A stretch of 64,000 nt of DNA from Escherichia phage 348Ecol098PP. Position 1 is the stretch's first letter. Each line of letters starts with the position of its first letter. The position numbers and the translations under genes are program-made. The notes beneath the pieces were generated by a model, which saw nothing but the letters and a program-made list of their open reading frames with translations, was not told where the DNA came from and did no database searches. Below are positions 4,019 through 61,723 of the stretch, piece by piece. Where the stretch lies: sequence record OR062947.1; one strand, given 5' to 3'.

Positions 4019-5017
4019 ATGTTTAAGAAATACAGCAGTCTTGAAAACCACTACAACTCTAAGTTTATTGAAAAACTCTACACTAATGGTTTGACTACTG
4101 GTGTTTGGGTAGCACGTGAGAAAATCCATGGGACCAACTTCTCGTTAATAATTGAACGTGACAACGTCACATGCGCCAAGCGCACAGGCCCTATTCTTCC
4201 AGCAGAAGATTTTTATGGTTATGAAATCGTACTCAAGAAGTATGATAAAGCTATTAAAGCCGTTCAGGAATTCATGTACACAGCTCGAGCCGTATCATAT
4301 CAAGTATTCGGTGAATTCGCTGGTGGTGGAATCCAGAAAGGTGTTGACTACGGTGAAAAAGATTTTTATGTGTTCGATATCCTTATCAATACAGAAAGTG
4401 GTGATAATACGTATTTGACCGATTACGAAATGCAAGATTTCTGTAATGAATTCGGTTTTAAAATGGCACCAATGCTTGGTCGTGGCACATTTGATGCTCT
4501 TATCATGATTCCAAACGACCTTGATTCTGTCTTAGCCGCTTATAATGCTACTGCGTCAGAAGACCTTGTCGAAGCAAATAATTGTGTATTTGATGCTAAT
4601 GTTATTGGCGATAATACGGCAGAAGGTTATGTTCTGAAACCTTGTTTTCCTAAATGGTTGCCAAACGGTACTCGTGTAGCTATTAAGTGCAAGAACTCTA
4701 AATTCAGTGAAAAGAAAAAGTCTGATAAGCCTATTAAAACTCAGGTTCCATTAACCGAAATTGACAAAAACTTGCTTGATGTCCTAGCTTGTTATGTTAC
4801 ATTAAACCGTGTTAATAATGTGATTTCTAAGATTGGGACTGTAACGCCAAAAGATTTTGGCAAAGTGATGGGATTGACTGTTCAAGATATTCTGGAAGAA
4901 ACTTCTCGTGAAGGTATTGTATTAACATCATCCGATAATCCGAATCTTGTTAAGAAAGAATTAGTCCGAATGGTGCAAGATGTTCTGCGTCCTGCATGGA
5001 TTGAATTAGTATCATAA
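4019..5017 (+). CDS. rnlB: RNA ligase 2
   Basis: 332 aa; lysine-adenylation motif KIHGTN near N-terminus; position next to gene 24 as in T4; preceded by MotA-box type promoter. Confidence 0.85.
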
Positions 5018-5049: not shown

Positions 5050-6333
5050 TTATTCATCTATAATAATTTTAGGCAATTTAACACCGAGTAAAACAGACAA
5101 GTCTGAACGTCCTGCCATTTTATCCATGTCCCCACCATCAATTATTCTCGCTTCTTTTTCGTCTTTTGCTACTGTGTAAGGATTTGCTGATAAAGCATAT
5201 CTAACCAATAATCCAATAGACGGTTGCAAGCTTTCTGGATCAACTACAACTTTAAATGCACCAACATGTTCCGGGTCATCTAAATCTACTCCTTCAGTGT
5301 ATGGAGCATAAAAGATGGACCCTACAATTTCTTTTTCGCCGATATTTTCTACAACACCCACAATAACATAATCTAACGGACTGTTGGTATCGCAGTAAAG
5401 AGGTAATCCATTTGCCAAGAATCCATAAGCATTTTGTGAAAGATACTTGTCATCTTCTGGCTTATGTTTTAACCAACCAGAAGCAGCAAGAATAGCAGCT
5501 GCACGAGCTGAGGCTACACAAAACGTTGCAGTATAAGTTGTCTCTTTTTGAATGTGTGATACCATTTCACACACCATTCGATATAATGAACGACCTGCTT
5601 CTGGAGCGGATGCATAGCTCAAGTCAATAAATCCAGTGTCAGTAATTCCAGTAACTTTATAACGTTTCGATACAGTAATTAAAGACTGAAGAATATCTTT
5701 ATTAATTTCATCAGCCATTTCAGTAGCAAGCAAATCTTCTAAGAAGTTAGGGGCATCAAATCCATTCGCTTCTAAATCTTGCGCTAATTCGACCGTGAGG
5801 CCAGTTTTAAGTTTACGAGATTTGACTGAAGTTTGCCATTTATTAATCTGGAATCTTGCATCAGAAATTTCGCTATCGGAGCTTTCAAATTTGCTTGTTA
5901 CCGCTGCATCTGAAAATAACCGTACCTTTAAATGAACGACTGCAATTTGAAGAGCTAATTCTAGATCACTTTCTTGAATATCTGCAAATGGTGTATCTTC
6001 TAACACCTTATAGACGATATTATTATATTTGAAAAAATCACCTTTATTTAGTGTGACTTTTGATTCTTCTGTGAGCTCAGTAATTTTTTCTCGGTCTACA
6101 TATCCAACTTCACCCGCATAAGTAGCACCAGTTTTAAATGTGAATTCATTATCTGGGTTAAGATATTTGATACCATAAAAAGCAGCAACAGGCTGATTAG
6201 TTCTTTGTGTTGCTACAATGTCAGAATATATTAATTTAGTCGTAGCGCGAGTCAAAGCAACGAGATTTGGGCGACCAATTGAGTTGCTAGTAGACGTTGT
6301 AGATTCACGCAATAATTTTTGGATTTTACTCAT
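5050..6333 (-). CDS. 24: Capsid vertex protein gp24
   Basis: 427 aa, same length as T4 gp24; synteny upstream of gene 23; late promoter at 6361-6368. Confidence 0.9.
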   Translation of the reverse strand: MSKIQKLLRESTTSTSNSIGRPNLVALTRATTKLIYSDIVATQRTNQPVAAFYGIKYLNPDNEFTFKTGATYAGEVGYVDREKITELTEESKVTLNKGDFFKYNNIVYKVLEDTPFADIQESDLELALQIAVVHLKVRLFSDAAVTSKFESSDSEISDARFQINKWQTSVKSRKLKTGLTVELAQDLEANGFDAPNFLEDLLATEMADEINKDILQSLITVSKRYKVTGITDTGFIDLSYASAPEAGRSLYRMVCEMVSHIQKETTYTATFCVASARAAAILAASGWLKHKPEDDKYLSQNAYGFLANGLPLYCDTNSPLDYVIVGVVENIGEKEIVGSIFYAPYTEGVDLDDPEHVGAFKVVVDPESLQPSIGLLVRYALSANPYTVAKDEKEARIIDGGDMDKMAGRSDLSVLLGVKLPKIIIDE

Positions 6334-6360
6334 TGCATTTTTTCCTTATGTGATATAGAT

Positions 6361-6368
6361 TATTTATA
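6361..6368 (-). promoter_or_regulatory. Late promoter TATAAATA (gene 24)
   Basis: Plus-strand TATTTATA upstream of gene 24 start. Confidence 0.6.
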
Positions 6369-6374
6369 AAGATT

Positions 6375-6434
6375 GTTTACAACGTATTTGGTACGTGATA
6401 CTATAGACTTATCAACTACAGAGGAGTAAACAAA
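6375..6434 (+). promoter_or_regulatory. Early promoter cassette: -35 GTTTAC, 18 nt, extended -10 TGaTACTAT, 5'UTR with SD GAGGAG
   Basis: GTTTAC 6375-6380, TACTAT 6399-6404; 6395-6440 identical to 42998-43043. Confidence 0.6.
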
Positions 6435-6704
6435 ATGACTAAAGCACGTTTCTTACGAGATACTTTAAAAGTTCTGGAAGCTGAAGCAGTTAAGTTAGTA
6501 GAAAAATATGGTGCAAAAGTTAATGGTAATGCCTTCAACAAAGTATGGATGAAAGTTGATTCTGAAGCTCGAGCTAAAGGTTATTGGGCCACTGATAAAC
6601 TTGCATCATTCAAAAACAAAGACGGTTCTCCAGCATATGTCCAAGAAGGTATGCCTAATTGGCAAAATATTTTGAAAACTTACATCGAAATTGCACAGAA
6701 ATAA
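6435..6704 (+). CDS. Hypothetical protein expressed from an early-promoter cassette, antisense to flanking capsid genes
   Basis: 89 aa ORF with SD GAGGAG, own GTTTAC/-10 promoter, followed by hairpin terminator; sits between genes 24 and 23. Confidence 0.5.
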   Translation: MTKARFLRDTLKVLEAEAVKLVEKYGAKVNGNAFNKVWMKVDSEARAKGYWATDKLASFKNKDGSPAYVQEGMPNWQNILKTYIEIAQK

Positions 6705-6707
6705 AAC

Positions 6708-6736
6708 CAAAAATGGGAGACCGAAGTCTCCCAAAA
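6708..6736. terminator. Bidirectional terminator between ORF 6435-6704 (+) and gene 23 (-)
   Basis: GGGAGAC-CGAA-GTCTCCC flanked by A-rich runs. Confidence 0.6.
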
Positions 6737-6756
6737 TAAGATTTAATCAATTAAGA

Positions 6757-8325
6757 TTAGATGCCTTTTACATATACACGGCGGAAGTAAGCGTTCTTAC
6801 CAAGGCTGTTCAGGATAGACGGCATACCGGACTGGATGCGAGCACCTGGAGCCTGCAGGGAACTTTCAGCAAACGGGTTAACACCGATACCGTAACGAGT
6901 TTTAAAGCCCATTACCGGCTGGAAGTTCTTAGGATCGGAACCACGCAGTGGGGTAAGTGCAACGTAAGGAGCATAGTAAATACCTGCATCCATTTCGTTA
7001 GCGCCTTTGTAACCAACGGTGAAGTAATCCTGTTTAGCATACTGGTCGATGTATACGCGGTATTTACCACCAAGTACACCGGCAAATACAGACTTAGTAG
7101 TGTCGGTATTAAAACCAGAAGCCAGACCCTGTGCAGCATAAGAAATACCAGTATCAACTGAAGCCAGTACGTTAACTACGTTACGGGAAGCGATAATGAA
7201 GTTACCTTCACCACGACCGGTTTGACGAGCAATTTCAACTGCTTCTTTATCAATCTGGAACAACAGAGATTTAAAGCTTTCACCGGCCCAACGAGCACCA
7301 CGGATATCAATCGGGTCCTGGAAGTCAAATACACCAGCTTTAGAACCCGGAGTCAGGGTCATACCAGATTTACCAACCTGTGCCGAGTAGTTAATCCAAT
7401 CAACAACTTCACGGTTGATTTCTAGCATAATTTCTGTAGCCAGAATACCGCTCAGTTCAGCATCAGCATCCATACCGTGTACTGCACGGAGGTCTTGTGC
7501 CAATTCGATGGAGTAAGCAGCTTTCAGCTGGCGAGATTTAGCTTCGATAACTTGTTTATCGATACGGAAGCCCATTTCGTTCCACGGGTTGTCGGTAGAA
7601 CCGTTGAAACCTTCCTGGAGTTCAGCGATAGAAGTAGCCATACCTTCAGCGATTTCTACCAGTGCACCAGCTTCCATTTGTTTCTTAACTTCTGCATCTA
7701 ATTTAGCTGCATCAGTTGCACCAGAATCAAGTGTTACGATAGCAGAAGCTTGCAGATATACAGTACCAGTTTCTTGGAAGAAGTGAGTATAGATATCACC
7801 TACAACAGTAGTAGTGTCAGCAGCCAGAGCTGGGAATTTCTTAGCAGCACCCTGTCCAGAGAACATCGCGTCTGGGGCATACATCGGATGGAAAGCTTCT
7901 TTAGCGCCAGCAGCGATAGGGTCTTTACCATATACTGCACGGAGAGCAAATACCTGACCGGTAGGGCTGTTCATAGGCTGAACACCACAAATATCAAAAG
8001 CGATCAGATTAGGAATAGCACGACGAACCATACCCATAACTGCCGGCCCAATTTGGGTTACTGCACCAGAGGTTTGACCTGCTGCGATGTTCTGAGCATT
8101 ATAACCGTGGTCACCACCAATTTCAGCTTCGGTCAAGAAAGAACCAAATGCCTGAGCGATTTTCTCGTCTTTATATTCAGGGGATACTTCGAAATCTTTT
8201 TCCTGGTTTTCGAAGATTTTAGCGATAATAGCCTGCTTGCTATTAGCGATTTCCGGCAGGCCTTCACCTTCCAGCAGTTCTTTCCATTTGTCTACGAGCT
8301 GAGCTTTAGTTTTGATAGTAGTCAT
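6757..8325 (-). CDS. 23: Major capsid protein gp23
   Basis: 522 aa; N-terminal MTTIKTKAQL...GLPEIANSKQAIIAKIFENQEKDF and body closely match remembered T4 gp23. Confidence 0.97.
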   Translation of the reverse strand: MTTIKTKAQLVDKWKELLEGEGLPEIANSKQAIIAKIFENQEKDFEVSPEYKDEKIAQAFGSFLTEAEIGGDHGYNAQNIAAGQTSGAVTQIGPAVMGMVRRAIPNLIAFDICGVQPMNSPTGQVFALRAVYGKDPIAAGAKEAFHPMYAPDAMFSGQGAAKKFPALAADTTTVVGDIYTHFFQETGTVYLQASAIVTLDSGATDAAKLDAEVKKQMEAGALVEIAEGMATSIAELQEGFNGSTDNPWNEMGFRIDKQVIEAKSRQLKAAYSIELAQDLRAVHGMDADAELSGILATEIMLEINREVVDWINYSAQVGKSGMTLTPGSKAGVFDFQDPIDIRGARWAGESFKSLLFQIDKEAVEIARQTGRGEGNFIIASRNVVNVLASVDTGISYAAQGLASGFNTDTTKSVFAGVLGGKYRVYIDQYAKQDYFTVGYKGANEMDAGIYYAPYVALTPLRGSDPKNFQPVMGFKTRYGIGVNPFAESSLQAPGARIQSGMPSILNSLGKNAYFRRVYVKGI

Positions 8326-8342
8326 TTGTGTTAACCTTTAAA

Positions 8343-9155
8343 TTAGAAACGAGATGCGACTTTCGCATATAAACTTACATTAGAATTCTGTTCTACCTGA
8401 GTTGTGGTAGTGTCAACTGCTTCGGCAACAAAATTAAGACCGGCAGCGTCATTGTCAACTGTATTTATACTTTCGGTAATAGCGGCTTCTTCTTTAGTAG
8501 AACCTTTAACCATTTCTACAATAGCAGTTAACTTAGTACCAAATGCGTCAGAATAATCCATACCTTCAACCAGGCCAATAACTTTTTCTTTCTGAGATTC
8601 AGTCAGGTCTTTTACGCTTTCATTAATAGCGGTTTCACGCTGAACGTAATTGATATATGCATCACGTTTGGTAACTTCTTCGAACAAACGAGCGGTTTCT
8701 TCTTTATGTTCGGCCAGCTCTTCTTCCATTTCTGCTACAACATCTACAGATTCTTCTGGAACAACAACGTTATGTTCAACAAACAGTTCTTTCAGACCAC
8801 CAAGCATGGATTCGAACAAATCAGCTTTAATGCCTTTATCAACTGCGATTTGGTTTTCTGCGAGCCATTCTTTTGCAAGATGGTCTAGGAATTTAGAAGC
8901 TTGTTCAGCCAATTTTTTATCAGCTTTCTCTTCAGCATCTTCTTTAGCCTTTTCAACTTCTTCTTCGGCCTTTTCGGCGATGGCTTTGATATGAGATTCA
9001 GCCAGTTTGACTGCTTCCTGCTTAACGGTGGCTTCGAATACAGTGCTGAAATTAGCTTTAACGTCCGGAGACAGTTCTACTGATTCGAAAACACTATTAA
9101 GAGCAACTGAAGTCTCGATGTTCTGAGCTTCTTTCAAAAGTTGTTCTTTGATCAT
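8343..9155 (-). CDS. 22: Prohead core scaffold protein gp22
   Basis: 270 aa, acidic coiled-coil, synteny 21-22-23. Confidence 0.85.
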   Translation of the reverse strand: MIKEQLLKEAQNIETSVALNSVFESVELSPDVKANFSTVFEATVKQEAVKLAESHIKAIAEKAEEEVEKAKEDAEEKADKKLAEQASKFLDHLAKEWLAENQIAVDKGIKADLFESMLGGLKELFVEHNVVVPEESVDVVAEMEEELAEHKEETARLFEEVTKRDAYINYVQRETAINESVKDLTESQKEKVIGLVEGMDYSDAFGTKLTAIVEMVKGSTKEEAAITESINTVDNDAAGLNFVAEAVDTTTTQVEQNSNVSLYAKVASRF

Positions 9156-9185
9156 TTTAGTGTCCTGTGGTTTAGATTACATTAT

Positions 9186-14754: not shown

Positions 14755-17071
<2,317 letters not shown>

Positions 17072-17080
17072 ATTTACCTC

Positions 17081-17905
17081 TTATTGTTTTCTAGGACCAG
17101 GAGGGGTTGGTGGAGTCGGGATTGGAATATCATGAGTATAAGTTTGTTCAACTTCGCCATTCCAATCTTGTGCTTCAACGTCTCTCGGTTTAATTTCTGT
17201 ATCAACTGATTCAAAAACACTGGCGGCTGTTTGAAGGTCTCGTTCGTTAGCATGAAAATCAAGATAAGTCGTTTTAATAAGGCCTTCAGCTGCGCCTACC
17301 GGAGGATACATCCATCCATTTACTTCAAATGTTAATGACCACTCTAAACGTCGACGAGATAAATTATCACCGTCTATTTGTTCATCCATTGCTGCTGCCA
17401 TCCATACGACTTTAATATCCCTTTCAAATGGAATATCCTGCCCATATTGCTCAATCATAGTCGTATTAAAATGCGGCTGAAAATATGGAATAATTTGCTC
17501 AACGATTTGGAACATATCATCTTCATAACGAGTAAAGATGCTCAGTTCAAAAATCATTTTAATTGGTGATGGGTTGTATTGGTCTACAATATCCTTAGTT
17601 GATTTACTCAAAAGAGAGTTATTCAATATATTCGTTTTAAACGTTGGGTTATAAACGAAATCTACCATTTGGAGATTTATACGTGGTAGAATAGTTTCGA
17701 CTTTAGCCACATCTTCTTGTGAGTTTATAGAGGTCCATTTATTAAGTTTCATCATAAAGTGCTCTTTAGATGCATACGTAATAGGAACTCTAATTAATTT
17801 ATTGCCTGTAGACAATTGACGGTTAACTTGGATATTTGAAAACAAATCGCCCATCATTGTGATATATCGCCTGAACGACGAGTTGTAAAAATAACCAAAC
17901 ATCAT
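17081..17905 (-). CDS. 15: Tail sheath stabiliser/completion protein gp15
   Basis: 274 aa, synteny. Confidence 0.85.
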   Translation of the reverse strand: MMFGYFYNSSFRRYITMMGDLFSNIQVNRQLSTGNKLIRVPITYASKEHFMMKLNKWTSINSQEDVAKVETILPRINLQMVDFVYNPTFKTNILNNSLLSKSTKDIVDQYNPSPIKMIFELSIFTRYEDDMFQIVEQIIPYFQPHFNTTMIEQYGQDIPFERDIKVVWMAAAMDEQIDGDNLSRRRLEWSLTFEVNGWMYPPVGAAEGLIKTTYLDFHANERDLQTAASVFESVDTEIKPRDVEAQDWNGEVEQTYTHDIPIPTPPTPPGPRKQ

Positions 17906-41033: not shown

Positions 41034-41107
41034 GGCCCTGTAGCTCAACGGTTAGCAGCAGTCCCCTCATAAGGGAAAGGTTACCAGTTCGAATCTGGTC
41101 TGGGTCA
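41034..41107 (+). tRNA. tRNA with anticodon CAU (Ile2/Met type; T4 tRNA-Ile uses CAU)
   Basis: Hand-folded cloverleaf: acceptor GGCCCUG, T-arm ACCAG-UUCGAAU-CUGGU, anticodon loop CUCAUAA; one acceptor mismatch and a weak outer anticodon-stem pair; no encoded CCA. Confidence 0.55.
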
Positions 41108-41113
41108 TATATT

Positions 41114-41189
41114 CGAGGCATAGCTCAGAAGGAAGAGCAAGGACCTTCTAAGTCCTAGGTCGTAGGTTCGATCCCTACTGTCTCGACCA
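41114..41189 (+). tRNA. tRNA-Arg (anticodon UCU)
   Basis: Hand-folded canonical cloverleaf: acceptor CGAGGCA/UGUCUCG, D-arm GCUC-AGAAGGAA-GAGC, anticodon arm AGGAC-CUUCUAA-GUCCU, T-arm GUAGG-UUCGAUC-CCUAC, encoded CCA. Confidence 0.8.
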
Positions 41190-53973: not shown

Positions 53974-54432
53974 ATGACTATCAATTCAGACGTTTTTATC
54001 CGCCGTAATAAACTCCGTCGAATCTTTGAAACGGAGTTCCGCAAAATAAATGCCGGTATAAAAGATGCTGCAAAGTCTCTTGGACTACCAGGCTTTCATA
54101 TCAAGTATTCTCAACATCTCTTAGATCGTGCCATCCAGAGAGAAATAGATGAGAATTACGTTTTTGAATTATTTCATAAAGTAAAAAATCATGTTAAAGA
54201 AGTTGCAGAATTTTTATCAATGCCGGCACGTCCAGATGTTGATGAAGATTTTGTCGAAGGTGTCGAATATCGCCCAGGCCGTTTAGAAATAACTGATGGA
54301 AATCTTTGGTTAGGACTTACAGTTTGTCGCGAAAATCCAGCATTCAAAATGAAGACTCTTCAATGCAGAATGGCTATTATTAACAGTAAACGACTACCAG
54401 GAAAAGCTTCTAAAGCAGTGATTAAAATCTAG
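53974..54432 (+). CDS. regB: RegB endoribonuclease
   Basis: 152 aa; MTINSDVFIRRNKLRR...YSQHLLDRAIQREIDE...RLPGKASKAVIK matches remembered T4 RegB. Confidence 0.9.
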   Translation: MTINSDVFIRRNKLRRIFETEFRKINAGIKDAAKSLGLPGFHIKYSQHLLDRAIQREIDENYVFELFHKVKNHVKEVAEFLSMPARPDVDEDFVEGVEYRPGRLEITDGNLWLGLTVCRENPAFKMKTLQCRMAIINSKRLPGKASKAVIKI

Positions 54433-54983: not shown

Positions 54984-55327
54984 CCAAAATGTTGGCTTTA
55001 ATAGTTGGCTTGGTTTCATTTAACGCTCTTGCTAATACTACATATACTGATGTAACGGAGTATACAAACAGAACGGCGTCTGATTATTGTGGTAAAAGTC
55101 AAGAGTGTAAAGTAGATTTTTCACAAAAATTGTTATATGCGTATAAAGACGGAGAAAAAGATGGGGCGTCTAGTAGGTTCAAGGCGTCTACCTTAATTAA
55201 AAGATACTATAAAAAATGGCAAATATTAGAATGCTCGGTGGCGGAACCTAAAGATAAGGCAGCATGCAATTCTATGGTGGACCGTCTAGTTGACTCTTAT
55301 ACTAGAGGACTTGCAGCAAGTGATTAA
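54980..55327 (+). CDS. Predicted exported/periplasmic protein
   Basis: 115 aa; signal peptide MTKMLALIVGLVSFNALA; 4 Cys. Confidence 0.45.
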   Translation: MTKMLALIVGLVSFNALANTTYTDVTEYTNRTASDYCGKSQECKVDFSQKLLYAYKDGEKDGASSRFKASTLIKRYYKKWQILECSVAEPKDKAACNSMVDRLVDSYTRGLAASD

Positions 55328-55784
55328 AAACTATATCAAGGGCGATATTGTCGCCCTGTTTTCTAAAGGTAATAATATTGCTCATGGGTGTAATTGTTTT
55401 CATACAATGGGCGCTGGTGTGGCAGGACAATTAGCAAAGGCTTATCCAAAAATTCTGGAAGCCGATAAACTTCAAACCGAATTCGGAGACGAGTCTAAAC
55501 TCGGGACTTATTCGGTTTATGAAAAATATTTTAAGACCCATAAAGCTTATTGCTTTAATCTTTATACACAGTTTGAGCCGGGACCTAATTTTGAGTACTC
55601 TGCTTTAATGAATTGTATAATAGAATTAAATGAATTCGGAAAGAATAAGATAACAAAGCCTGTAATTTATATGCCAAGAATTGGTGCAGGTATTGGTGGT
55701 GGAAACTGGGACGTCATCGAAGAGATTTTAGATACGTATTCTACTAAACTAGAAATTGTGATTGTTGATTGGGAACCTAAATGA
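55320..55784 (+). CDS. Macro-domain protein (ADP-ribose binding/processing)
   Basis: Macro-like motifs GDIV...IAHGCNC...GAGVAGQLAKA and IGAGIGGG; start uncertain (GTG 55320 or TTG 55290). Confidence 0.5.
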   Translation: MIKNYIKGDIVALFSKGNNIAHGCNCFHTMGAGVAGQLAKAYPKILEADKLQTEFGDESKLGTYSVYEKYFKTHKAYCFNLYTQFEPGPNFEYSALMNCIIELNEFGKNKITKPVIYMPRIGAGIGGGNWDVIEEILDTYSTKLEIVIVDWEPK

Positions 55785-56806: not shown

Positions 56807-57109
56807 ATGGCCTTAAGAGCGATAGCTGTCATGGCGATGCTGGGGTTTTTTGCAGCAACAACTCCTATCGTTGGTACTGCATATATCGACCCATATTTTG
56901 ATAACTTTATGGAATCAGGGATTAAAAACGTATATACTTTGTTTGAAATTCAAAATGTCGAGAATTCTGAAAAATTCTATAAGTATATGGCAAAGCATTA
57001 CAAAAATAGCCCCTGTGATGATGCATTTGAATGTCATGAACAAGGCATAAAAACTGCCAGACAATTTGCCGAGTTCATGAAAATAAAATTAGAGCCTACA
57101 TCTATCTAA
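56807..57109 (+). CDS. rI: Lysis inhibition regulator RI (antiholin)
   Basis: 100 aa; signal-anchor MALRAIAVMAMLGFFAA then DPYFDNFMESGIKNVY...; resembles remembered T4 RI. Confidence 0.8.
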   Translation: MALRAIAVMAMLGFFAATTPIVGTAYIDPYFDNFMESGIKNVYTLFEIQNVENSEKFYKYMAKHYKNSPCDDAFECHEQGIKTARQFAEFMKIKLEPTSI

Positions 57110-57112
57110 TTT

Positions 57113-57145
57113 ACTAGCCCCTTCCGAAAGGTTGGGGCTTTTTGG
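57113..57145 (+). terminator. Rho-independent terminator after rI
   Basis: Same hairpin+T-run module as 41852-41884. Confidence 0.65.
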
Positions 57146-57154
57146 CATCTATCA

Positions 57155-57206
57155 GTTTACTTCTCCTCAGGTTGTGTTATAGTAAACCTTACTTACTAGA
57201 GGAGAA
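57155..57206 (+). promoter_or_regulatory. Early promoter with IR TTCTCCTC / GAGGAGAA (spacer vs SD)
   Basis: GTTTAC 57155-57160, TATAGT 57179-57184; IR 57161-57168 and 57199-57206. Confidence 0.55.
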
Positions 57207-57210
57207 CGTT

Positions 57211-57390
57211 ATGTCACGTAAAGAAAAAATTTCTAAGTTAATGTTTTTGATTGAAGAGTACGCTAATGCGGTATCTGATTGGGAAAATGCTCATGGTTGC
57301 GAAGATGGAGACATCGACATTAACAGAGCTATGAAAAAGATGGCTGATACGCACACCGAATTGCAAATGTATGTTAACGAGATTATGTGA
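57211..57390 (+). CDS. Hypothetical protein
   Basis: 59 aa from MSRKEK with SD GAGGAGAA. Confidence 0.4.
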   Translation: MSRKEKISKLMFLIEEYANAVSDWENAHGCEDGDIDINRAMKKMADTHTELQMYVNEIM

Positions 57391-57397
57391 GGACATT

Positions 57398-57607
57398 ATG
57401 CTTTACGATTATACTGGAAAATCTGAAGACGGTGTACTTGAACTTTTACCTGAAAGTGCTGAAGATGATGATATGACGACGGTGATGTTTTGTAAAAATG
57501 GCCCTGGGGATAAGGGATGGATTTATCTTCGTCAAGAAAATGACTTAATTGTTTTGGACCCTAAACAAGTTGAAGAACTTTATCAACATTTAAAACACAA
57601 TCGGTAG
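57398..57607 (+). CDS. Hypothetical acidic protein
   Basis: 69 aa from MLYDYTGK. Confidence 0.4.
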   Translation: MLYDYTGKSEDGVLELLPESAEDDDMTTVMFCKNGPGDKGWIYLRQENDLIVLDPKQVEELYQHLKHNR

Positions 57608-57645
57608 TTTACAACTTGGTAGGACTATGTTATAGTAGTCCTACC
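57607..57645 (+). promoter_or_regulatory. Early promoter inside IR GGTAGGACTA / TAGTCCTACC
   Basis: GTTTAC 57607-57612, TATAGT 57631-57636; IR 57618-57627 and 57636-57645. Confidence 0.55.
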
Positions 57646-57664
57646 AAAACAAATGGAGAACAAA

Positions 57665-57775
57665 ATGAAACTTTTGCTTATCGCTTATGTTGTAGTACAA
57701 TACAATTATCCGATGTTTACGTATAACATGGTAAATGGTATAATGAATCTTATTGAAGCGAGTATGGTAAAATGA
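57665..57775 (+). CDS. Possible 36-aa hydrophobic peptide
   Basis: Short ORF MKLLLIAYVVVQYNYPMF... directly behind an early promoter stem-loop. Confidence 0.25.
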   Translation: MKLLLIAYVVVQYNYPMFTYNMVNGIMNLIEASMVK

Positions 57776-57887
57776 CCTGTGAACAAGCTAATAAATTGAT
57801 AGATCTTATTTAATTTTTATAGAAATCAGGTTGATGCTCGTCAGAATTATTTGGTGAATTTTGTTGAAACTTTAATTGGTGAATAAT

Positions 57888-58418
57888 ATGAAAACTGTAA
57901 TTGAAACGACTGAGTTGTTTGGTGATTTATGTATCGAAAAACGTGGTTATGCGTACGTTCTGACGCAAGAAGATGATGTTGTTACTATTCTTCCTATGGA
58001 ACTAGACAAGATTTTGAAACTCAATCCACCTGGTCATGCATCTGTAATTAACATTGATGGAGACCTTCAAGTTCGTTTTTATCACGGACTTTATAGCGGG
58101 GTTAATATCGAAACCGAAGATGAATGTTTTTCTATTAATAATTGGAAAACATTTGTCACTAAGGTGAAAGAATTCATGGAATCTGAAACAGCCAAAAAGG
58201 CCAAACTTCAATGGGCTAAATGCCGTAATGCTTTTATTACAAATCAGGACCGCCCTGACTATACAACAGTCCTGGGAGTTAATCCTTCTTATGAAGATGG
58301 TGATGTCGTAGTTATTCGTCAAATTGATGACCTTCGTCAACATATCATTACATTAGACAAAGATGAAGCAGTTGCTCTTAAAGCTTATCTTGATTCTATT
58401 ATCCCGACTTTGAAATAA
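57888..58418 (+). CDS. Hypothetical protein
   Basis: 176 aa from MKTVIETTE. Confidence 0.45.
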   Translation: MKTVIETTELFGDLCIEKRGYAYVLTQEDDVVTILPMELDKILKLNPPGHASVINIDGDLQVRFYHGLYSGVNIETEDECFSINNWKTFVTKVKEFMESETAKKAKLQWAKCRNAFITNQDRPDYTTVLGVNPSYEDGDVVVIRQIDDLRQHIITLDKDEAVALKAYLDSIIPTLK

Positions 58419-58427
58419 GGAATTATT

Positions 58428-58901
58428 ATGATTATCAATGAAAACTCTTGGCACTTTAAAATTTATGCAGCGTTCAATAGTACATGGAATCGTCCGAAAA
58501 CGTTGTGTGCTTATTTTTGGAAAACGTTAATCCCGGTATTGGCTGCTTCAATTATTGGATTTGCGATTTTAGCAGCAGTCACAATCATTGGCCAGGAAAT
58601 TTTAACTAAATTCTTTGTTTTTAGCAGTCTATGGACATTAGTTCCAGCCTCAATTGGTGTAGGCATTTTAATGGTAGCAGTCATGGCTTTTATTGCTACT
58701 GGGTTGGTAATTGGTCCGTCTTGGTTGTTAGACAAATATAACGACAGAAAATATTATAAAGAAATTGAGCTCATTGCACAAAACCAAGAACGAATTAAAA
58801 ATGGACTTGAGCCTATTGAACGTAAGAAATCATTAATAGGTGAATACCTTAAAGCTCGTAAAGAAAAAGTCTGTCCTACTCTTGAATATAAGGCTAAATG
58901 A
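58428..58901 (+). CDS. Membrane protein
   Basis: 157 aa with 3 predicted TM helices. Confidence 0.45.
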   Translation: MIINENSWHFKIYAAFNSTWNRPKTLCAYFWKTLIPVLAASIIGFAILAAVTIIGQEILTKFFVFSSLWTLVPASIGVGILMVAVMAFIATGLVIGPSWLLDKYNDRKYYKEIELIAQNQERIKNGLEPIERKKSLIGEYLKARKEKVCPTLEYKAK

Positions 58902-59887
58902 TGAAAACAATTATGAAAGGCTACTTTGGTAGCCACCTTTATGGAACGTCTACTCCTGAATCTGACGTCGATTTTAAAGAAATTTATGTCCCTCATGCTC
59001 GTGATATCTTGACCGGTAACGTTAAAGAACACATGAGCAAGAACACGAATAACACATCTTCTAAGAACACAAAAGACGACGTGGACCATGAGTTGTATAG
59101 TCTCAAATATTTCTTTAAACTAGCTGCGGATGGTGAAACCGTCGCATTAGATATGCTTCACACTCCACCAAGTCTAGTAGTTAAATCTGATTTGCCTGAT
59201 GTATGGAAGTATATTCAAGATAACAGGTCTCGTTTCTATACCACTAACATGAAATCTTATTTAGGGTATGTCCGTAAGCAAGCTTCTAAATATGGTGTCA
59301 AGGGTTCTCGACTGGCTGTTCTTCGTCAAGCCCTTAAACGTTCTAATGAATGGGGACAATACTTTGATAATGGTGCAGTAATTCGTTTATCACATATGAA
59401 GAATGTTCTGCCTGTAGGTGAATTTGCTTCGTGGGTTGAAACCGAAAACGAGAAAACAGGTAAGCAAACATTCTATAATCTGTTAGACCGTAAATTCCAA
59501 GACACATTAACCAATAAAGAGTTCAATGCCATCCTGGTTAAACTGGAAGAGAACTATGGTGAACGTGCTCGTAAGGCAGAAGCTAACGAAGGTATTGACT
59601 GGAAAGCATTGAGTCATGCATGTCGTGGTGGACTTCAACTATTGGAAATTTACAAAACCGACGACCTGGTTTACCCACTTCAGGATGCTCCATTTATTCT
59701 CGATGTTAAGCTTGGTAAACATACATTTAAAACTGTACAAGAATTCCTAGAAGATATCGTTGACCAAGTTGAACAAGCATCAGAACAAGCCGCTAAGAAC
59801 GGTATGCAACAAAAAGTAGATATGAGTTTCTGGGATGATTTCCTTGAGCAAGTCTATCTCGAAAATCATAATTCTTACTATAAATAA
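58898..59887 (+). CDS. Nucleotidyltransferase-fold protein (pol-beta-like GS...D.D motif)
   Basis: 329 aa; N-terminal YFGSHLYGTSTPESDVDF and later ALDMLH (third acidic residue); ATGA-coupled to upstream membrane ORF. Confidence 0.5.
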   Translation: MMKTIMKGYFGSHLYGTSTPESDVDFKEIYVPHARDILTGNVKEHMSKNTNNTSSKNTKDDVDHELYSLKYFFKLAADGETVALDMLHTPPSLVVKSDLPDVWKYIQDNRSRFYTTNMKSYLGYVRKQASKYGVKGSRLAVLRQALKRSNEWGQYFDNGAVIRLSHMKNVLPVGEFASWVETENEKTGKQTFYNLLDRKFQDTLTNKEFNAILVKLEENYGERARKAEANEGIDWKALSHACRGGLQLLEIYKTDDLVYPLQDAPFILDVKLGKHTFKTVQEFLEDIVDQVEQASEQAAKNGMQQKVDMSFWDDFLEQVYLENHNSYYK

Positions 59888-59918
59888 ATAGATAAATAAC
59901 CCTTAACTTGAGGTAAAT

Positions 59919-60200
59919 ATGAAAAAATTAGTAATTGGTTTATTCGCAGTAATGATGGCATTCTCTGTTGGTGCTACCACAGGTGCAGCCGGCGGTAGTG
60001 CAGGAGCTGGTGGTAACCAGTCTTCTGGGCCTTCCAACGGTTCGGTAAATGCATCACATTCTCAGGGTATTGAGAACATTAAATCAAGCTATATTAATAG
60101 CACGGCCGGACAAGCAACTGAAGCATGGTCAAAGGGCCGAGTAGTTACTCGCTCCGTATTCTGTGATATGCCTAATTATGTTGCTAAGTGCGATAAGTAA
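59919..60200 (+). CDS. Small secreted Gly/Ser-rich protein
   Basis: 93 aa; signal peptide MKKLVIGLFAVMMAFSVGA; followed by terminator. Confidence 0.45.
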   Translation: MKKLVIGLFAVMMAFSVGATTGAAGGSAGAGGNQSSGPSNGSVNASHSQGIENIKSSYINSTAGQATEAWSKGRVVTRSVFCDMPNYVAKCDK

Positions 60201-60203
60201 ATG

Positions 60204-60235
60204 TGGGGACCTTCGGGTCCCTTTAGGGGGTTAAA
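60204..60235 (+). terminator. Rho-independent terminator
   Basis: GGGGACC-TTCG-GGTCCC then TTTAGGGGG (related to 42556-42585). Confidence 0.55.
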
Positions 60236-60251
60236 ATATTTAAAAAAGTAG

Positions 60252-60279
60252 TGTACATGCTTTTAGGATATGTTATTAT
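60252..60279 (+). promoter_or_regulatory. Early promoter TGTACA / TGTTATTAT
   Basis: -35 60252-60257, TATTAT 60274-60279. Confidence 0.45.
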
Positions 60280-60317
60280 AGACCTATCGAAACGAAATGA
60301 GTAAATTGGAGAATAAA

Positions 60318-61298
60318 ATGTTCAACGTTCAAATCAAAAAAGGTATCTATCGTAATAACGAAATCTCTGGTTCTTATGTTGCCACAAAGACCTGGTTCCC
60401 GGCAAAGCTTAATCCTGAATGTTCCCACTTAGGTGATGGTAAAATTTTCGTTATTATTGATGGTTCTGAACGTGGAGTATGGGTCTTCAAATCAGACATC
60501 GTAATGGAAGGAGTTGAGACATCACCAGTTGCAGTTGTTGAAAGCACTGAAGATATGAAAACTCGTATCAACAAACGCTTTAAAGTAATGAACATGATGA
60601 CGAATGGCATTATCGATGGCAAAATTCGTTCACTCATTATTTCAGGTGCAGCCGGTATTGGTAAGACGTATTCTCTGGATAAAGCACTTAATAATGCTAA
60701 TGATAATGGTTTCATCAAATACAAAAGCATTAATGGTAAAATCTCTGGTATTGGCCTTTACGAACAACTTTGGCTCAACCGTGATGCAGACAGCGTTCTC
60801 TTAATCGACGACGTTGACGTATTCTCAGATATGGACATCTTGAACCTTCTTAAAGCAGCATTAGATACAGGCGATAAACGCAAAGTTTGTTGGAGCACTG
60901 CGTCATCTTATCTCGAGGATAAGGGTATTGATAAAGAATTTGAGTTTGAAGGTACTATCGTTTTCATTACAAACGTTGATATAGATAAAGAGTTAGAACG
61001 GGGTTCGAAACTTGCTCCACACCTTCAAGCTTTAGTATCTCGTTCAGTGTATCTCGACCTTGGAGTACACTCTAATGAAGAGATTATGGTTCGAGTTGAA
61101 GATGTAATATTATCTACTGACATGATGCAGAAACGTGGTCTGACGGATGCAGAAACGTATAAAGCATTGTCCTGGATGAAGGCTAATGTATCTCGTCTTC
61201 GCAATGTATCATTACGTACCGCTCTTTATGTAGCAGATTTTATTTCAACTGATAAAGATGGTTGGGAGGAAATCTCTGAAGTAACTTTACTGAAATAA
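60318..61298 (+). CDS. AAA+/P-loop ATPase with N-terminal ~100 aa domain
   Basis: 326 aa from MFNVQIKKG; Walker A GAAGIGKT, Walker B VLLIDDVD, sensor-1-like FITN. Confidence 0.5.
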   Translation: MFNVQIKKGIYRNNEISGSYVATKTWFPAKLNPECSHLGDGKIFVIIDGSERGVWVFKSDIVMEGVETSPVAVVESTEDMKTRINKRFKVMNMMTNGIIDGKIRSLIISGAAGIGKTYSLDKALNNANDNGFIKYKSINGKISGIGLYEQLWLNRDADSVLLIDDVDVFSDMDILNLLKAALDTGDKRKVCWSTASSYLEDKGIDKEFEFEGTIVFITNVDIDKELERGSKLAPHLQALVSRSVYLDLGVHSNEEIMVRVEDVILSTDMMQKRGLTDAETYKALSWMKANVSRLRNVSLRTALYVADFISTDKDGWEEISEVTLLK

Positions 61299-61435
61299 GC
61301 TTATAGGAAGTTCTGAGGTAACAAAAGCCATAAAGATGAATAATCATATGGCTTACCTCAAAGAAGGACACCAGGAACCTACTGAGGGCATAGAAATATT
61401 TAAAATAATGATGTACAAATCAAAGAGGATATGTT

Positions 61436-61723
61436 ATGGATTTTATGCAAAAAATTAAAGCCGCAGTCGAACTGTATGCTCATCGTATGGTTAGTTCTAC
61501 GATGCAATATAGTGAGGAGGTTCGCCAGGACTCTTCCTTGAAAGGAAAAACTAAAGCCTTAATTACCTTAGATCGTTTGCAAAAGAATGCCATAGAGATG
61601 CTCCAGTACGACAAGGGTGTATATAAGAAAGAACAGGAAGAGAAACTTAAATCTGAAAAATTACAAAAAATCCCGAAGTCTGTTTGGTTCAGTGGAAAAA
61701 ATACCGAAAAAAGTTTCTTTTAG
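61436..61723 (+). CDS. Hypothetical protein
   Basis: 95 aa ORF. Confidence 0.4.
   Translation: MDFMQKIKAAVELYAHRMVSSTMQYSEEVRQDSSLKGKTKALITLDRLQKNAIEMLQYDKGVYKKEQEEKLKSEKLQKIPKSVWFSGKNTEKSFF

Follow-up and report, generated by a model that had tools for sequence, protein, structure and literature searches.

A T4 NrdC.11 orthologue of the RlaP nucleotidyltransferase family and its predicted place in RNA repair in Escherichia phage 348Ecol098PP

A tightly coupled gene cluster in a Mosigvirus

Escherichia phage 348Ecol098PP (sequence record OR062947.1) is considered here through a single strand of 64,000 nucleotides (nt), which we call the window and whose coordinates are used throughout. Positions 57888-59887 carry three genes on the + strand, the last of which encodes a nucleotidyltransferase (NTase) of 329 amino acids (aa). 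By sequence, this protein is the orthologue of T4 NrdC.11 and thus a member of a family that has already been described. The source phage is a Mosigvirus of the RB69-like T-even group, with about 97% nt identity to sequenced isolates; across 57600-60300 its DNA is 97-97.6% identical to that of many Escherichia phages, and an annotated relative, vB_EcoM_SA79RD (97% identical), is likewise classed as a Mosigvirus of the RB69 group.

The cluster opens with a gene for a MobD.1/y05I-like protein (57888-58418, +) of 176 aa, counted from its ATG; a TTG four codons upstream is likewise in an open frame. After a spacer of 9 nt comes a gene for a small membrane protein of 157 aa (58428-58901, +), its ATG preceded by an AAGGA ribosome-binding site, and this gene shares an ATGA overlap with the NTase gene (58898-59887, +). 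Many database records start the NTase from a second ATG, at 58901, and so have it as a 328-aa protein. A preliminary description of this DNA, made from the sequence alone, had placed three open reading frames (ORFs) at exactly these positions and called them tightly coupled, which the short spacer and the ATGA overlap bear out. All three have numerous homologues and are genuine genes. The equivalent region of T4 reads mobD.1 - (mobD) - nrdC.11 - nrdC.10.

Two sites resembling T4 early promoters precede the cluster on the + strand, both recognized by their match to the consensus. The first, TTTACA-17-TATAGT at 57608-57636, agrees with the consensus at 10 of 12 positions and has the TG of an extended -10 element; the second, TTTACG-17-TATAAT at 57716-57744, also with a TG, is the nearest upstream of the cluster. 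At the other end, a late-promoter-like TATAAATA (59880-59887, +) lies within the end of the NTase gene, ahead of a gene for a 93-aa protein (59919-60200, +), and a terminator-like hairpin, GGGACC-TTCG-GGTCCC followed by TTT, was found by eye at about 60205-60224 (+). An automated scan of the + strand from 57000 to 61600 returned no terminator-like site, the hairpin at 60205-60224 having too few T to be listed. The SA79RD annotation carries the same promoters and terminator as this cluster, with the terminator at the place matching the hairpin and an equivalent of the late-promoter-like site. From these sequence features, the transcription unit probably starts at either early-type site and runs through the 93-aa gene to the hairpin, so that the 93-aa gene would be its last and a fourth gene beyond the NTase. 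The three-gene operon ending in the NTase, as first proposed, thus survives in its three tightly coupled genes but probably not in its end point.

A perfect 10-bp hairpin, GGTAGGACTA-N-TAGTCCTACC, lies at about 57616-57645 and overlaps the first early-promoter-like site. The SA79RD annotation makes it a rho-independent terminator; a T-run follows it on neither strand, and the sequence gives this label no obvious support.

The 329-aa nucleotidyltransferase

The 329-aa protein matches Pfam family PF10127 with 47.3 bits against a gathering cut-off of 23 (E=2.8e-12, residues 7-140), and the collection phrog_388, 'nucleotidyltransferase', with E=3e-125. Over its full length it is 78% identical to T4 NrdC.11 (Y05H, NP_049709). 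The T4 gene occupies the same position between mobD.1 and nrdC.10 and differs in the gene just upstream, which is the homing endonuclease gene mobD in T4 and the membrane protein gene here. Pfam calls PF10127 'RlaP, RNA repair pathway DNA polymerase beta family', RlaP denoting an RNA-ligase-associated Pol-beta NTase. T4NrdC.11 is listed as a PF10127 member, in cluster 5 of a sequence similarity network (SSN), in a preprint of 30 December 2025 by Carruthers, Fatma and Huang (PMC12776372), which credits the name RlaP to Burroughs and Aravind, who chose it because these proteins are encoded beside RNA ligases. The family is large: searching from the 329-aa protein, we retrieved 3703 proteins at E<=1e-3 from a database clustered at 90% identity, and 3098 clusters at 50% identity, 724 of them at E<=1e-30. 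From the 50%-clustered set we aligned 128 diverse representatives, 33-52% identical to the query, of which all but one (127) match PF10127 themselves. We regard it as almost certain that the 329-aa protein is an RlaP-family RNA nucleotidyltransferase.

The catalytic residues are nearly invariant in this alignment. Within the motif G11-S12-x10-D23-V-D25 (58928-58972, +), G11 is kept in 128/128 relatives and S12, D23 and D25 in 127/128 each; because of this near-invariance, the GS-x10-DxD pattern is not a chance match. Further acidic positions are kept at D61 (123/128), D63 (126/128) and D85 (124/128), and N57 is also nearly invariant. The protein thus has the hG[GS], the DxD and the additional conserved carboxylates of the Pol-beta signature. 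The D61-V-D63 segment (59078-59086, +), on a strand formed by residues 62-68 in the structure model, is a candidate for the third catalytic carboxylate, and by the pattern of the Pol-beta fold D63 is probably the third metal-binding residue. Both the pol-beta-type assignment and the GS-DxD motif with a downstream acidic residue, which the preliminary description had read from this one sequence, therefore hold across the family.

Conservation extends into the C-terminal half, where Y124-x3-Q128-x2-K131-Y132-x3-G136-x-R138, Y220-G221-x-R223, D234-W-K-x2-S-H240-x2-R243 and K271-x-G273 are nearly invariant. Basic residues are prominent among the invariant or nearly invariant positions (K27, K131, R138, R223, K236, R243 and K271), many of them in the helical domain.

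An AlphaFold2 (AF2) model of the protein (predicted local distance difference test, pLDDT, 94.3; predicted TM-score, pTM, 0.85) shows an alpha/beta core at about residues 1-115, including helices 69-77 and 81-87, a helical domain at 119-300 with a three-stranded beta-hairpin insert at 177-201, and a terminal helix at 309-328. The model agrees with the earlier claim of a helical domain following the NTase core. In the crystal structure of a Pseudomonas RlaP, PfRlaP, an NTase domain and a helical domain are followed by a terminal helix, which folds back and packs against two helices of the NTase domain (PMC12776372); the order of the parts in our model fits this description, the comparison being one of secondary-structure order. 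The Pseudomonas enzymes and the phage protein share PF10127 and the GS...DxD core with a third conserved Asp, in a family reported to have three strictly conserved aspartic acids. They differ in that the phage clade has the larger C-terminal domain, with its beta-hairpin insert, and falls into SSN cluster 5 rather than 1a.

Searches against solved structures were less informative. Foldseek found no match to the model in the PDB at E<=1e-3, and neither the sequence nor the profile of 128 sequences gave anything meaningful against all PDB chains. Among sub-threshold matches, Foldseek ranked kanamycin nucleotidyltransferase, the NTase-like protein 3c18 and Hailong HalB highest, at TM-scores near 0.3, while a search of predicted viral structures matched many phage 'nucleotidyltransferases'. 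An NCBIfam scan of five proteins gave one sub-threshold chance match, and a PADLOC scan gave only a weak match to a transmembrane (TM) region.

These matches bring to mind NTases that modify proteins or small molecules, such as the MNT antitoxins that AMPylate HEPN toxins, or the aminoglycoside nucleotidyltransferases. We consider such a target very improbable for the 329-aa protein. The fold resemblance is weak, with every Foldseek E-value above 1e-3; an MNT-type Pfam model touches just 2 of the 128 relatives; the Rx4-6H motif of HEPN proteins is absent, so that the protein qualifies neither for MNT-HEPN toxin-antitoxin pairs nor for NTase-HEPN fusions; and RlaPs did not modify proteins of E. 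coli (PMC12776372).

GenBank and UniRef records often call the 329-aa protein 'thioredoxin' (for example in phages F27, moha, mogra and AV111). It has no thioredoxin domain, having the PF10127 nucleotidyltransferase domain instead, and the label probably stems from the gene name nrdC.11 and spread from there.

RNA-repair genes around the relatives and a predicted fill-in step

We retrieved 80 bacterial and archaeal loci with full-length relatives of the NTase (33-52% identical), clustered the neighbouring genes and identified the recurrent ones with Pfam. The recurrent neighbours are RtcB, the Pnkp ligase domain, the Pnkp-associated methyltransferase Hen1, Ro60/TROVE and an HD protein. RtcB, Pnkp-ligase, Hen1 or Ro60 genes lie within 5 kb in 16 of the 80 loci, mostly on the same strand, and in 11 of the 48 loci that have at least 3 kb on both sides; for neighbours this rare, we roughly estimate that chance would give less than one locus in 80.

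Among 80 viral NTase loci, repair genes stand next to the NTase in a few instructive cases. On one uncultivated viral contig (L082), the NTase (5962-6993), an RNA ligase (6994-8295) and a T4-type Pnkp kinase with HAD phosphatase (8292-9179) are contiguous or overlapping, and 5962-9179 forms a complete 'fill, seal, heal' operon. In another locus (L059), consecutive genes encode a metallophosphoesterase, a kinase and the NTase, with Rnl1 upstream; in two more (L069 and L079), RNA ligase genes follow the NTase at a distance of 1-2 kb. Most of the distant viral loci have no conserved neighbour, the exceptions being an antisense ORF inside the gene and, in 13 loci, a NUDIX/cytidylyltransferase protein 3 kb upstream. 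Linkage to RNA-repair genes is therefore a feature of the NrdC.11-like clade, too, and not of the assayed Pseudomonas clade alone.

The antisense ORF, of about 80-117 aa, occurs inside the NTase gene in 51/80 viral and 54/80 bacterial loci. It follows the frame conservation of the NTase and is most simply a shadow ORF rather than a gene.

The enzymes that the NTase would work with are found in this type of phage. In the window the nearest ligase gene, 54 kb away, encodes RnlB, a 5′-phosphate RNA ligase of the T4 RNA ligase 2 family (4019-5017, +; PF09414, E=4.3e-24; PF18043, T4_Rnl2_C, E=6e-23), and RnlB may be the partner that acts after the NTase. Genes for a PseT-like polynucleotide kinase/phosphatase and for RnlA are present in SA79RD, and Rnl1 homologues occur in 1827 phage records. 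In Pseudomonas the RlaP operon is rtcB-rlaP-rtcA, and the bacterial NrdC.11-like members likewise stand beside RtcB; the phage gene, by contrast, lies outside any ligase operon, and the ligases available to it are ATP-dependent 5′-phosphate enzymes rather than RtcB.

The first RNA-repair system to be discovered was that of T4 Pnkp and Rnl1. Their 'heal and seal' pathway, which counters the anticodon nuclease PrrC, is where the NTase is predicted to act. In its classical form it adds no nucleotides, and excision of the RloC type is expected to be beyond it: Davidov and Kaufmann (2008, PMC2610378) showed that RloC excises the wobble nucleotide and argued that this lesion could defeat repair by T4 Pnkp and Rnl1. 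Whether phages can reverse such 'smart', nucleotide-removing tRNA damage has been a question since that description in 2008. Iyer et al. (2021, PMC7824862) predicted that phage RlaPs refill RloC-type nucleotide loss before ligation, so that a role for the phage enzyme against nucleotide-excising tRNases has already been proposed in the literature.

The activity needed for such a role is known from two Pseudomonas enzymes, PfRlaP and PaRlaP. With a preference for Mn2+, these add one or two nucleoside monophosphates (NMPs) to the 3′-OH of RNA, using any nucleoside triphosphate (NTP) and also dATP, and they accept any single-stranded RNA with a 3′-OH; DNA and 3′-phosphorylated RNA are not substrates (PMC12776372). 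On a mimic of a cleaved tRNA, PfRlaP favours the 3′ end on the anticodon side over the acceptor 3′ end, and where a tRNA lacks one anticodon-loop nucleotide, RlaP treatment before ligation partly restores aminoacylation (PMC12776372). The product keeps a 3′-OH end, suited to 5′-phosphate ligases such as those of T4 (PMC12776372).

On these grounds, we predict that the NrdC.11 orthologue performs fill-in before ligation in phage tRNA repair, and give this full scenario a probability of roughly 0.65. After a host nuclease has cut a tRNA, phage Pnkp would first convert the broken ends to 3′-OH and 5′-phosphate. The NTase, with two metal ions held by D23, D25 and the third carboxylate, would then add one or two untemplated NMPs from NTPs to the 3′-OH of the broken RNA, its preferred substrate being the 5′ half of a tRNA that was cut in the anticodon loop and lacks a nucleotide, as after wobble excision by RloC. 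Rnl1 or Rnl2 would seal the break after fill-in; because both are 5′-phosphate RNA ligases, the 3′-OH product of an RlaP should suit them. The T4 'heal and seal' would thereby become 'heal, fill, seal'. The substrate and the role against nucleotide-excising tRNases are what we infer for this phage.

Several observations weigh against this scenario. As many as 64/80 bacterial loci have no RNA-repair neighbour within 5 kb, and the NTase is not adjacent to a ligase or Pnkp gene here or in 76/80 viral loci. The PF10127 alignment spans only model positions 23-147 of 249, the NTase half, and the larger C-terminal domain of the modelled phage protein, with its beta-hairpin insert, may give it a substrate choice different from that of the Pseudomonas enzymes. 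The addition of 1-2 nt by RlaPs is known from those two enzymes only; in the literature searched we found no report of an activity assay for NrdC.11, and RlaP activity in phages is a prediction. Being untemplated, addition restores the correct nucleotide in only a fraction of molecules, a caveat of the authors themselves (PMC12776372). Finally, the T4 block nrdC.11-mobD.3 can be deleted with viability on laboratory hosts (PMC9825161), a dispensability that is compatible with an accessory anti-defence role without lending it positive support.

An alternative substrate is the CCA end of tRNAs, of the phage or the host, which the enzyme might rebuild or complete where it is missing or has been trimmed by a defence nuclease. 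Like the RlaPs, the class II CCA-adding and poly(A) polymerases (PF01743) belong to the Pol-beta superfamily and extend RNA 3′ ends without a template. The window has only two tRNA genes by Rfam, 6 nt apart at 41034-41189: tRNA-Met(CAU) at 41034-41107 has no encoded CCA, which would give such an enzyme work to do, and tRNA-Arg(UCU) at 41114-41189 ends in CGACCA and so encodes its CCA. The earlier statement that the phage tRNAs lack encoded CCA is thus right for the first and wrong for the second. T4 tRNAs are known to be matured by the CCA-adding enzyme of the host. PF01743 was not among the Pfam matches of the 329-aa protein at E<=0.1 or of its 128 relatives at E<=0.001, and the C-terminal domains are of other kinds. 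RlaPs, which accept all four NTPs, labelled tRNAs and rRNAs of full length in total RNA from E. coli (PMC12776372), and this would fit work at intact 3′ ends; against this stand the preference of PfRlaP for the anticodon side over the acceptor end (PMC12776372) and the fact that CCA cannot be written by the untemplated addition of 1-2 nt of any base with little NTP specificity. The neighbours of the relatives (ligases, Pnkp and Hen1) act on internal breaks. We consider CCA synthesis an unlikely function, and CCA-type repair of the phage's own tRNAs, which the preliminary description had implied when it offered tRNA repair as plausible, gives way to a 1-2-nt fill-in as the likelier one.

The enzyme might instead put short 3′ tails on host or phage transcripts or their fragments and so alter their stability, in a way unrelated to repair by ligation. 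In favour of tailing, the NTase gene of this phage is unlinked to repair genes and shares its early region with the RegB endoribonuclease (53974-54432), and the bacterial RlaPs use any single-stranded 3′-OH RNA (PMC12776372). Addition ends at 1-2 nt (PMC12776372), however, which is short for a decay tag, and the genes that recur nearby encode ligases and end-healing enzymes, not RNases or parts of the degradosome; we think tailing improbable, to about the same degree as CCA synthesis.

NrdC.11-type RlaPs, present in thousands of phage genomes, are the obvious candidates for reversing nucleotide-removing tRNA damage. The window reveals no new kind of enzyme; what this analysis contributes is the link of the phage clade to ligases and Pnkp, the attention drawn to the membrane protein and the exposure of the 'thioredoxin' mis-annotation. 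The preliminary description had the fold right, along with one of the two roles it offered, but did not recognize the protein as T4 NrdC.11, a named family member.

The membrane protein and other genes of the region

The product of 58428-58901 matches phrog_944, 'membrane protein' (E=4.9e-53); Pfam lacks a model for its family, and no source gives the family an informative name. Two hydrophobic blocks stand out in the hydropathy profile, at about residues 33-55 and 71-100, and an AF2 model built with 31 homologues (pLDDT 82.8) has long helices at 26-62 and 68-124, together with short strands at both termini. Two TM helices are more likely on this evidence than the three first proposed, and both tails are probably on one side. 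The alignments show conserved tails flanking a variable TM core, with NSWH...LCxYFWK in the N-tail and Y[IL]KARKxKxCPxIE in the C-tail; C27 and C149 are invariant.

Homologues of the membrane protein occur in 1120 phage records (tblastn). The gene accompanies the NTase in 39/80 viral loci, all of the enterobacterial T-even type: in 11 the two are directly adjacent and in the rest 0.4-1.8 kb of inserted genes lies between them. The three-gene arrangement is thus specific to close relatives. T4 has the HNH homing endonuclease gene mobD (16430-17209 in locus L001) in its place, and tblastn over T4 positions 40-62 kb found no trace of the membrane gene, which T2, T6, RB32 and the Mosigviruses keep. 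None of the 80 bacterial NTase loci has it.

A membrane protein together with an NTase is also the make-up of a Hailong operon, in which HalB, an oligo-dA-synthesizing NTase, is paired with the channel HalA, and HalB was the best structural match of the 329-aa protein. On this analogy the pair would synthesize an oligonucleotide or other signal, or would let the phage counter a defence by making or replacing its signal. The likeness to HalB amounts to 15% identity, with no sequence-level match to any PDB chain, and the membrane protein matches neither HalA nor any solved channel. PADLOC gave no match for the NTase or the membrane protein, and no Pfam family of the CD-NTase/SMODS type of signalling synthases was found in the 329-aa protein or its 128 relatives. 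Nor is the pair obligate: the membrane gene is missing from T4 and from all 80 bacterial loci, which nevertheless have the NTase, and where it does occur it often stands beside RNA ligases or Pnkp with no NTase. The acceptor also differs, DNA not being used by RlaPs (PMC12776372). With neither a HalB-like sequence nor an obligate HalA-like partner, a Hailong-like function is in our view highly unlikely. Of the two roles first offered, tRNA repair fits the family, whereas manipulation of host nucleotide signalling draws no Pfam or PADLOC match and is at odds with neighbours that are RNA ligases and end-healing enzymes rather than defence or signalling genes.

To follow the membrane protein itself, we surveyed 79 viral loci retrieved with its family profile (L166-L244) over a range of 6 kb, counting related lineages separately. 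An RlaP NTase lies within this range in 31/79 loci. In 13 further loci an RNA ligase or Pnkp/kinase gene does so on the same strand, for a total of 44/79; by Pfam, the repair genes of these 13 are Rnl1, Rnl2 and PHA02142-type ligases, Pnkp kinase-HAD proteins and AAA_33 kinases. The repair gene lies directly beside the membrane gene, or nearly so, in four Pakpunavirus loci, in Aeromonas-type T4-like phages (L219, L227, L231 and L243) and in three other loci (L201, L206 and L222). In the Pakpunavirus Pseudomonas phage YS35, for example, the order is HD, metallophosphoesterase, two small genes, membrane protein, Rnl1-type ligase and AAA_33 kinase, and in the Aeromonas-type phages the membrane gene stands beside ligases with nrdC.11 elsewhere on the same contigs.

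That the membrane protein and repair genes move together suggests a functional link; we roughly estimate about five independent lineages with adjacency where about one would be expected. As a tentative proposal, well short of an even chance, the membrane protein may be an unrecognized accessory of phage RNA-repair modules whose partner varies: the RlaP NTase in T-even phages, Rnl1 with a kinase and a phosphoesterase in Pakpunaviruses, and PHA02142-type or Rnl2 ligases and Pnkp elsewhere. With NrdC.11 it might form a membrane-associated 'heal-fill-seal' system with which T-even phages overcome nucleotide-excising tRNases of the RloC type or imported tRNase toxins. The association of the membrane protein with RNA-repair genes is the only element of this analysis that we did not find described.

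PseT.3, a membrane protein encoded between pseT and rnlA, was considered as a member of the same family and rejected (hhalign probability 0.2%).

The protein of 57888-58418 has both domains of the T4 y05I/MobD.1 family, T4_y05I_N and T4_y05I_C, with PF24449 at E=1.1e-40 (138.7 bits, cut-off 24.9) and PF24448 at E=2.5e-19 (69.8 bits, cut-off 27). It also matches phrog_1502 and is 46% identical to T4 MobD.1; the Pfam label is 'putative transcription factor'. MobD.1 is present alongside the NTase in only 13/80 viral loci. It is probably a co-transcribed neighbour, and we saw no evidence for a function shared with the NTase.

The 93-aa protein of 59919-60200 is rich in Gly and Ser, with an N-terminal segment resembling a signal peptide; it matches phrog_2243 (E=4e-38) and is named 'signal-peptide domain-containing protein' in related records. 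A weak, YbgS-like Pfam match is sub-threshold. Its gene adjoins the NTase in only 1/80 viral loci. Beyond it, at 60297-61298, lies the NrdC.10 orthologue (333 aa), which has the P-loop GAAGIGKT and AAA/STAND Pfam matches that are all sub-threshold; some records label it 'helicase loader', and it comes after the NTase in 32/80 viral loci.

Upstream of the cluster, by 3-4 kb, are the gene for RegB (PF10715, E=6e-69) and that for a Macro-domain protein, Tk.4, at 55290-55784 (PF01661). Macro domains process products of the ADP-ribose-1″-phosphate type that arise from removal of RNA 2′-phosphates. Because RegB and the Macro-domain protein are both encoded there, the early region houses several functions related to RNA ends.

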